NCBI RefSeq assembly: GCF_003790525.1
Contig: NZ_CP033635.1
Reading direction: 5' to 3' (one strand)
DNA from: Escherichia coli
GTDB taxonomy: Bacteria; Pseudomonadota; Gammaproteobacteria; Enterobacterales; Enterobacteriaceae
Length of the DNA stretch: 64,000 nucleotides
Positions 35,160 through 36,499 of the stretch are shown here, piece by piece. The first letter of the stretch is position 1. The number at the start of each line of letters is the position of its first letter. The notes below the pieces were generated by a model. The model saw nothing but the letters and a program-made list of their open reading frames with translations. It searched no databases and was not told the DNA's origin. A program made the position numbers and the translations under genes.

Positions 35160-35176
35160 GTGTATTATCGGCGCAG

Positions 35177-35205
35177 AGCCCGGGCGAACCGGGCTTTGTT
35201 TTATT
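35177..35205 (+). terminator. Rho-independent terminator of phoH
   Basis: AGCCCGG-gcgaa-CCGGGCT followed by TTGTTTTATTT. Confidence 0.6.
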
Positions 35206-35721
35206 TCATTAACAGCAAAGACTTTCACTTCAGGTTAACGTTCTGGGGGGCGACTTTGAGCGTGTTGATAAGCTGAAATTAATTCTGGTTTAGATGCTTT
35301 TACCAGGCATTTTTCGTCATAGCACGCGACCAATGTAATGCCTCCAGCGCGGAGAGTTTTTTGCCTATCTTTTTCCAGCCATTCAACCTGTACAGGAGGT
35401 CTGGTGCCAATTTTGCGTATGAGGTTTAATCAACAATGAGCCAAAATTTGACTGACTGATTAACACCAAATATATTCTCCTGATTTTATTTTTTAGGGAT
35501 AATATTAAAAATATAAGGTTAATCTTAATTAAATTTTTGGCTAATATTGTGTCTTGTTATTTTTTGTGGACGGCAAGCCGCAATGGCAAAATAGGTATGG
35601 TTGTAATAATCAAAACATGATACTAACTATATATAGATCGTTGAATTGTTGGCATGTAACTCGCTACAGCGAGTAGCGTTAGTAATGAAATATAATCAAC
35701 ATGGATAGGTGAAGATTAATT

Positions 35722-36408
35722 ATGAGCTTTATGGTTTTTGTAACTTGTTTGACAATTGCATTTGTCGCCGGTTTTGCTGTTGCCAGAAAATTGACACTCC
35801 GAAAAGTTGCCTCATCGGTAATCATCACTAAATCGCAACCAGTTCCTTCCTCTGCAACTTCCCCTGCTGTTAAGGCGTCGACAAGGAGCTATACACCGCA
35901 GAAAACCTATCGTGACTCTCGTTGGCAAGAACGAGATGAGTTGTTCCAGGGAATGGTTGCCGAAGGTATTTTATTGGAAGGAAAAGAGTGGTTAATTACG
36001 CGTTGTGAAAAAATCTATTTTGATAATCTGGAGAAATGGTTTGGACATTATTGTCATATCCATTGCCAGGTCTCTCTGGGGCGCTTGATCAACTTTCCAG
36101 AACAACCCGAGTTTAGCGAAGAAGAAAGAAAGCGTTTCTTTGCAATTTATAATGGAATGGCAATGGATTATGTTCTGGTTTCAAAGAAGAACAATAAAAT
36201 AGTCTGTGTTATTGAGCTGGATGATCCGAGTCATGAAAGGGCAGATCGCATTATTCGTGACCGTTGGTTGAATACGATTATGACTATTGCACGGGTGCCT
36301 TTTGTACGAGCTTCTGTCACTAAATTGGATGAAATCCCTCCGGTCTGGGATACCCGTGACAAAATGCGCCCATTAGCCGCGGCGACAAAGGGTGAACCGT
36401 TGCATTAA
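35722..36408 (+). CDS. Hypothetical membrane-anchored protein (228 aa) with C-terminal Vsr/DUF559/DUF2726-like endonuclease-fold motif; not part of the K-12 phoH-serX gene set as I recall it
   Basis: ATG 35722; N-terminal hydrophobic helix (FMVFVTCLTIAFVAGFAVA); C-terminal DYVLV...KIVCVIELDDPSHE...RDRW...ARVPFVR pattern; preceded by a roughly 300-bp AT-rich leader; followed by 12-bp palindrome CCCCGATCGGGG. Confidence 0.6.
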   Translation: MSFMVFVTCLTIAFVAGFAVARKLTLRKVASSVIITKSQPVPSSATSPAVKASTRSYTPQKTYRDSRWQERDELFQGMVAEGILLEGKEWLITRCEKIYFDNLEKWFGHYCHIHCQVSLGRLINFPEQPEFSEEERKRFFAIYNGMAMDYVLVSKKNNKIVCVIELDDPSHERADRIIRDRWLNTIMTIARVPFVRASVTKLDEIPPVWDTRDKMRPLAAATKGEPLH

Positions 36409-36458
36409 CTAAGTACCCCGATCGGGGCTTCTCATCCCCCCGGTGTGTGCAATATACG

Positions 36459-36486
36459 AAAAAAAAGCCCGTACTTTCGTACGAGC
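36459..36486 (-). terminator. Rho-independent terminator of serX
   Basis: Minus strand: GCTCGTAC-gaaa-GTACGGGC followed by T8, immediately 3' of the tRNA. Confidence 0.6.
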
Positions 36487-36499
36487 TCTTCTTTAAAGA

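Follow-up and report, generated by a model that had tools for sequence, protein, structure and literature searches.

A compact phoH–serX interval with a DUF2726 gene is probably the ancestral allele of an old replacement polymorphism in Escherichia coli

Results

Gene content of the phoH–serX interval

The window analysed in this study is a 64-kb stretch of chromosomal DNA that is 100% identical to E. coli SMS-3-5 (NC_010498.1), and all positions are given in window coordinates. The left core flank of the interval is formed by phoH (34371..35159, plus strand; open reading frame (ORF) list and RefSeq annotation), and the right core flank is formed by ghrA (36821..37759, plus strand; annotation and identities). 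Between them lies serX, encoding tRNA-Ser(GGA), on the minus strand at 36500..36587 (ARAGORN and Rfam tRNA), with its 3′ end at 36500. The distance from the phoH stop codon to the serX 3′ end is 1,340 bp (35160–36499). The serX sequence shows 100% identity with those of K-12, the B1 strains and E. albertii. The start of phoH differs between annotations, being placed at 34371 by PGAP (262 aa) and upstream at 34095 according to the K-12 annotation of b1020 (354 aa). On the minus strand, antisense to the phoH 3′ end, positions 35100–35154 partially matched the Yersinia sRNA Ysr251 in Rfam; this match scored 50 bits against a gathering score of 100 and was clipped at the edge of the searched stretch.

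The phoH intrinsic terminator (35173..35202, plus strand), located by terminator scan and K-12 blastn, comprises a hairpin at 35173–35199 followed by a T-run. The 520 bp between this terminator and the next gene hold no credible ORF and fall into two parts. The left non-coding part (35203..35440, no strand assigned; multi-allele alignment) has a G+C content of ~43% and was found by alignment in Escherichia and missing from Salmonella. At window position ~35334 (alignment columns 235–261), SMS-3-5 lacks a 27-bp stretch that is kept by the other E. coli alleles, the cryptic clade and E. albertii (25 bp there). No hidden pseudogene or small protein was recognised in 35203–35440, where the ORFs are short and their frames disagree among strains, and the longest ORF of this region, taken from E. 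albertii, retrieved no protein homologue. The right half, at only ~30% G+C (0.295–0.305 over ~35400–35700 in the composition profile), is the AT-rich leader and putative promoter region of the downstream gene (35441..35721, plus strand; composition, promoter scan and alignment). A candidate sigma-70 promoter was predicted at 35448–35476 by promoter scan, the TATAAT at 35691–35696 is invariant in the alignment from E. coli through Salmonella, and a Shine-Dalgarno-like AGGTGA lies at 35706–35711, ahead of the gene.

The gene itself (35722..36408, plus strand; ORF list) is the sole ORF of at least 60 aa within 35160–36499. It encodes 228 aa and is annotated in RefSeq as a DUF2726 protein. The coding sequence has ~42% G+C (about 37–49%), and the flanks have ~52%. 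A gap of 6 bp separates the end of this ORF from the 85-bp serX 3′ trailer (36415..36499, minus strand; K-12 blastn and terminator scan), in which the terminator scan placed the serX terminator hairpin at 36467–36486. Since this hairpin has an A/T-run on either side, it is possibly bidirectional and could also terminate the convergent DUF2726 gene. An Rfam search for structured RNAs in the interval (E ≤ 1) returned the tRNA only, the rest being sub-threshold matches at chance level.

Comparison with K-12 and allele boundaries

The gene order in K-12 MG1655 is phoH-pgaDCBA-dgcT-IS3D-ymdE-ycdU-serX, and the phoH stop codon and the serX 3′ end are 11,508 bp apart. These data bear out the K-12 order and the spacing of about 11 kb given in the original prediction, and the phoH terminator, the single 228-aa ORF, the AT-rich leader and the serX 3′ end at 36500 likewise lie where it had placed them. 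In blastn comparison, homology to K-12 ends at 35202, in the T-run of the phoH terminator, and returns at 36415. The allele-specific segment therefore spans 35203–36414 (1,212 bp), with the terminator T-run as the left breakpoint common to both alleles and position 36415 as the right breakpoint. A blastn search at word size 7 for a remnant of the segment in K-12 matched the shared flanks alone.

Features of the DUF2726 protein

Pfam family PF10881 (DUF2726) matched residues 90–205 of the protein (E = 2.8e-18; model positions 3–116 of 126) and was the only Pfam family in the ORF. No match to the 228-aa protein was obtained in NCBIfam, none at E ≤ 1 among the anti-phage defence models of PADLOC-DB 2.0, and nothing significant in a sequence search of the PDB; the match in PHROGs was solely to a family of unknown function. 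The architecture consists of an N-terminal transmembrane (TM) helix (residues ~3–22), a disordered linker (~27–63) and a Vsr/DUF559-like PD-(D/E)xK-fold domain (~70–222). Residues 3–22 are hydrophobic and followed by R/K, and the positive-inside rule predicts an N-out/C-in anchor with a cytoplasmic domain. The fold comparison identified a restriction-endonuclease-like core fold in the product, with other PD-(D/E)xK nucleases further down the comparison.

Three residues of the motif MDYVLV...VIELDDPSHE (E165, D168 and H171) do not vary among 17 homologues (37–93% identity), and a fourth, D149, is shared by at least 90% of them. These residues are presumed equivalents of the Vsr catalytic residues, as judged from the motif rather than from superposition. 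The conserved motif residues agree with the placement of this family in the literature, in which DUF2726 was grouped with VSR/DUF559 (PMC3424549) and described as an REase-fold DNase domain (PMC3710099). Comparisons with E. coli alleles and with E. albertii gave dN/dS ratios of 0.14–0.25, and that with the cryptic clade gave 0.32; these low values indicate that selection maintains the gene in the genomes that carry it. The product looks like a Vsr/DUF559-type endonuclease domain located in the cytoplasm and tethered to the inner membrane, as predicted from sequence and modelled fold. Cleavage of DNA at the inner membrane, serving exclusion or defence, is the best available guess for its function, although a tentative and low-confidence one.

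Genomic contexts of distant homologues

In a search for the gene on plasmids and phages, matches were confined to distant Vibrio elements and to records of chromosome size mislabelled as 'plasmid'; close homologues of the SMS-3-5 gene were found on chromosomes alone. More distant homologues (37–57% identity) that keep the TM and DUF2726 architecture recur in set contexts. In Salmonella, Pantoea, Enterobacter, Citrobacter and Klebsiella aerogenes, they lie in the T6SS core cluster between tssA and tssF, in the order tssM-tssA-DUF2726-tssF-tssG-tssJ-vgrG. The homologue in Erwinia lies immediately 5′ of vgrG-DUF2169-PAAR effector genes, and in ICE-like modules (Dickeya, E. coli and a metagenome) the gene occupies a fixed site between traG and a tyrosine integrase. 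Homologues are also carried by filamentous vibriophage-like Vibrio phage records of 10–13 kb, one of which is named Vaf1.

The T6SS and conjugation contexts are suggestive of a role at envelope-spanning transfer machines; a search for literature tying DUF2726 to T6SS or conjugation found none. It is improbable that TM-DUF2726 proteins are accessory or exclusion nucleases of such machines and that the phoH-linked gene is a domesticated copy; if this were true, the phoH-linked copy would act on DNA at the inner membrane and would have been lost when the pga island took the slot. Because distant members sit on mobile elements and in T6SS clusters, the phoH-linked gene may have a very ancient mobile origin.

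Distribution of the two alleles in E. coli

The distribution of the segment was determined in 5,426 complete RefSeq E. coli genomes. At least 80% of the 1,212-bp segment was present in 1,043 of these genomes (19%), and any portion of it in 1,051. The K-12-type phoH-pgaD junction was present in 4,348 genomes (80%), and pgaA was found anywhere in the genome in 4,332. The DUF2726 segment and the pga junction together cover 99.4% of the genomes, and the slot essentially has two alleles that are near-mutually exclusive. In the compact-allele strains, SMS-3-5 included, the pga operon is missing genome-wide. The segment is neither in K-12 nor in essentially all E. coli, and the expectation that this interval varies among strains was upheld. 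Its description as strain-specific content did not hold, and the DUF2726 gene already has a RefSeq annotation.

Sequence classes of the segment were distinguished. SMS-3-5 belongs, with many human and avian isolates, to a class at 96.5–100% identity (class 1), and IAI1, B7A, and O26 and O111 EHEC strains belong to a class at ~93% identity (class 2); we take class 1 to represent phylogroups F and relatives, and class 2 to represent B1. The pga junction was seen in K-12, O157:H7 and O145, plus a class that is ~96.7% identical to K-12. The difference between these junction classes indicates that the pga block is old and has diverged within E. coli.

A hybrid locus was found in E. coli strain E8, in which phoH and 234 bp of the B1-type left segment are fused at a microhomology to mid-pgaD, followed by IS1 and then a ycdU fragment (extracted E8 locus 8954–9240). 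This hybrid was considered as an evolutionary intermediate and rejected because its junction is limited to one of the 5,426 genomes. The E8 junction could also be derived by deletion in an ancestor that held both blocks (phoH-DUF2726-...-pga-...-serX) and from which reciprocal deletions produced the two alleles. Such an ancestor is decidedly improbable, since the E8 junction is unique in the sample and looks like a recent, one-off illegitimate recombinant of the two alleles, and since none among the matches listed has both blocks complete and the alleles sum to 99.4% of genomes.

A few genomes (listed as H66 and H88) have an IS1 insertion in the DUF2726 ORF. These insertions, the dispensability of the gene in 80% of E. 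coli and the lack of matching curated family or defence models (NCBIfam and PADLOC) would suit an ORF that is a decaying, functionless relic, persisting where pga has yet to replace it. This reading is very improbable, since such a relic can hardly be expected to show a full-length ORF in E. coli F and B1, the cryptic clade, E. albertii and Salmonella, the dN/dS values given above, including that of 0.32 against the cryptic clade, and nuclease-motif residues that are invariant or nearly so across homologues of 37–93% identity. A gene maintained by selection in the compact allele is the preferred interpretation.

The serX trailer and RtT-like repeats

Tandem units of 181–182 bp, each with 19 nt of the tRNA 3′ end, occur 3′ of serX, and their number is 0 full units in SMS-3-5, 3.4 in K-12 and 6.6 in VTB96935v. 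Positions 36415–36499 of the window are one partial RtT-like unit, which matches the equivalent stretch of the K-12 units at 97–99% identity. PGAP labels full serX units as RtT sRNA in other genomes; 36415–36499, as an only partial unit, gave no Rfam RtT match at E ≤ 1, and no tandem array was found in the SMS-3-5 window. The unit number varies independently of the allele in the slot and the repeats accompany both alleles. The RtT-like repeats belong to the serX trailer and do not represent attachment sites at the ends of the segment. In this trailer, 21 nt at 36421–36441 are 86% complementary to the T-arm region of serX (36510–36530), which fits an origin of the trailer repeat by partial duplication of the tRNA.

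Synteny in outgroups

A species scan, which used one genome per prokaryotic species and detects only near-identical peptides, recovered the gene from the type strain of E. albertii and from Escherichia sp. MOD1-EC7003; this near-identical-peptide scan had no match in E. fergusonii, E. marmotae or E. ruysiae. Collinearity between E. albertii and the window runs from efeU to beyond ghrA and takes in phoH, the leader, the DUF2726 gene, two RtT-like units and serX. The cryptic-clade genome MOD1-EC7003 retains the phoH-DUF2726 pair; the 6 kb that follow the DUF2726 gene contain no serX. In the same genome, efeUOB is missing between putP and phoH (locus 4232–4238), and the region 3′ of DUF2726 contains a cluster of molybdopterin oxidoreductase, 4Fe-4S and membrane-subunit genes, an IS1 fragment and an ABC ATPase (locus 6710–12684).

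The orthologue in Salmonella enterica is 73% identical and lies directly downstream of putA-putP-phoH. A second set of Salmonella serovars has the order putA-putP-phoH-DUF2726-rve-serX-ghrA-ycdX-ycdY-ycdZ-csgG-csgF, and in one Salmonella genome T6SS genes lie between the phoH-linked orthologue and the serX side; a search of the literature for a name of this T6SS island found nothing usable. The Salmonella ORF is intact, with 219 aa and an N-terminal membrane helix. It is widely annotated as 151 aa from an internal Met (locus 6001–6456), likely a systematic misannotation of the start site. A 1,450-bp contig of a Collinsella metagenome-assembled genome (JAIJJM010000775.1) shares 96% identity with the phoH-DUF2726 region of E. 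coli and is almost certainly E. coli binning contamination.

Sequence divergence was compared between the DUF2726 gene and the adjacent core genes. For phoH, nucleotide identity is 98.5% with K-12, 93.4% with E. albertii and 81.9% with Salmonella. For the DUF2726 coding sequence it is 88.5% with E. albertii, for which ghrA gave 86.2%, and 78.9% with Salmonella. The dS values against E. albertii were 0.40 for DUF2726, 0.33 for phoH and 0.66 for ghrA, and the leader aligns in parts to the outgroups. The DUF2726 gene diverges as an orthologue would, to an extent that resembles that of the flanking core genes. Between F and B1, DUF2726 has a dS of 0.12, compared with 0.05–0.06 for phoH and ghrA, and the leader is 86% identical. 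This excess is within the local range, since efeB and the efeB-phoH spacer are also only 93–96% identical between F and B1, and it would allow for some events other than plain vertical inheritance.

Polarity of the polymorphism

The compact phoH-DUF2726-serX arrangement is probably, and with good confidence, the ancestral and vertically inherited form and, beside the pga form, one side of an old two-allele replacement polymorphism. This reading from comparative sequence evidence is based on the occupation of this slot by the same gene in E. albertii and in Salmonella, the flank-like divergence, and the lack of an integrase and of a serX repeat; the polarity was inferred informally from three outgroup lineages (E. 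albertii, the cryptic clade and Salmonella). If the compact form is ancestral, the pga/dgcT/ycdU block would be a later island that replaced 1.2 kb.

The original prediction had proposed the opposite direction, namely, an islet integrated at the tRNA 3′ end that had replaced the K-12 block. Several observations are in keeping with a horizontally acquired islet or remnant at the serX 3′ end that displaced K-12-type content. serX is a recognised island insertion site; the leader (30% G+C) and the coding sequence (~42%) are below the flanks (~52%); distant homologues occur in ICE-like modules, beside T6SS genes and in filamentous vibriophage-like elements; and in some Salmonella the gene is separated from serX by a T6SS island and an rve transposase. 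Such an acquisition is nevertheless very improbable. No integrase is encoded next to the serX 3′ end among the ORFs of 35160–36499, the 64-kb window contains no second copy of the 19-nt serX 3′ end with 3 mismatches allowed, and no direct repeats, including those of the serX 3′ end for which a check had been proposed, flank the segment. An island should be absent from the same site in sister species, whereas the gene is present there in E. albertii and Salmonella and beside phoH in the cryptic clade. Its flank-like divergence, the purifying selection acting on it and the lack of a close homologue on any true plasmid or phage also argue against an islet. The low G+C content does not in itself point to recent acquisition, because the orthologous region of the outgroups is likewise low. 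The observation of a compact interval was thus confirmed and the slot is truly polymorphic; the islet interpretation was not supported, and the direction of events appears to be reversed, with the compact form probably ancestral and the K-12 block inserted.

Discussion

A model of allele replacement

The following course of events is proposed from the ancestral polarity of the compact form. The common ancestor of Escherichia and Salmonella would have had phoH followed by a single membrane-anchored DUF2726 gene, which was presumably read toward serX as far as the serX terminator region. pgaABCD-dgcT would then have displaced, in an E. coli lineage, the 1.2 kb that separates the phoH terminator from the serX trailer, with loss of the DUF2726 gene. 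IS3, ymdE-ycdU and serX-linked islands may have joined the pga block later. Both alleles would still segregate, at ~80% for pga and ~19% for DUF2726, and probably pass between lineages via homologous recombination in the conserved flanks.

Implications for E. coli biology

The polymorphism is ordinary genome variation with a modest twist, in that the reference strain holds the derived state. Comparisons that take K-12 as the default at this locus misread the ancestral allele as an insertion. Approximately one in five sequenced E. coli, including SMS-3-5, IAI1 and the listed O26 and O111 EHEC strains, lack pgaABCD and dgcT. Compact-allele strains should be unable to produce the PGA polysaccharide, as expected from gene content, because no pga operon is present anywhere in their genomes; the absence of pga and dgcT should also affect PGA-dependent biofilm formation and c-di-GMP signalling. 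The gene that these strains retain encodes a conserved, uncharacterised, predicted membrane-tethered nuclease-fold protein with relatives near T6SS and conjugation modules. The phoH–serX polymorphism opens no long-standing question, and a small functional lead remains.

Comparison with known systems

The known serX islands, which we take to include PAI-serX of UPEC CFT073 and SpLE1/OI-48 of O157:H7, provide the first comparison. Islands of this kind measure tens of kb, carry a P4-type integrase by the tRNA and have a copy of the tRNA 3′ end repeated at their boundary. The SMS-3-5 interval has the same tRNA landmark and varies among strains as they do, but it is without their large size, integrase and 3′-end repeat. 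The serX units resemble RtT, located downstream of tyrT, in that both are tandem repeats of ~180 bp after a tRNA gene in which 19 nt of its 3′ end are repeated. SMS-3-5 differs from an RtT array in having one partial 85-bp unit, the serX terminator region, and no array.

The presence/absence polymorphism itself is already described, from the viewpoint of K-12. In the portions of two papers considered here, pgaABCD-ycdT(dgcT)-IS3-ymdE-ycdU was treated as a 'region of genomic heterogeneity' or 'genome island' extending from efeB/phoH to ghrA/ycdXYZ (PMC4951805, Goldstone et al. 2016; PMC5635171, Cimdins et al. 2017), and the strains Tob1, Fec101 and B-8638 were reported without ycdT, pga and IS between phoH and csgG (PMC5635171). 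O104:H4 and 55989 have pga (PMC4287979). In PMC4951805 and PMC5635171, the compact form as carried by SMS-3-5 is the state scored as lacking the island, and the locus and the polymorphism are the same as ours. The portions of both papers considered here treat the presence or absence of K-12 genes; they mention neither the 1.2-kb DUF2726 content of the 'empty' form nor the sharing of the compact form with E. albertii and Salmonella.

The DUF2726 protein can be compared with the Vsr/DUF559/I-Bth0305I branch of the PD-(D/E)xK nucleases. The sequence identity is only 10–16%, and the DUF2726 protein gives no sign of T:G mismatch repair or of homing. Relative to this branch, the DUF2726 protein adds an N-terminal membrane anchor and a linker.
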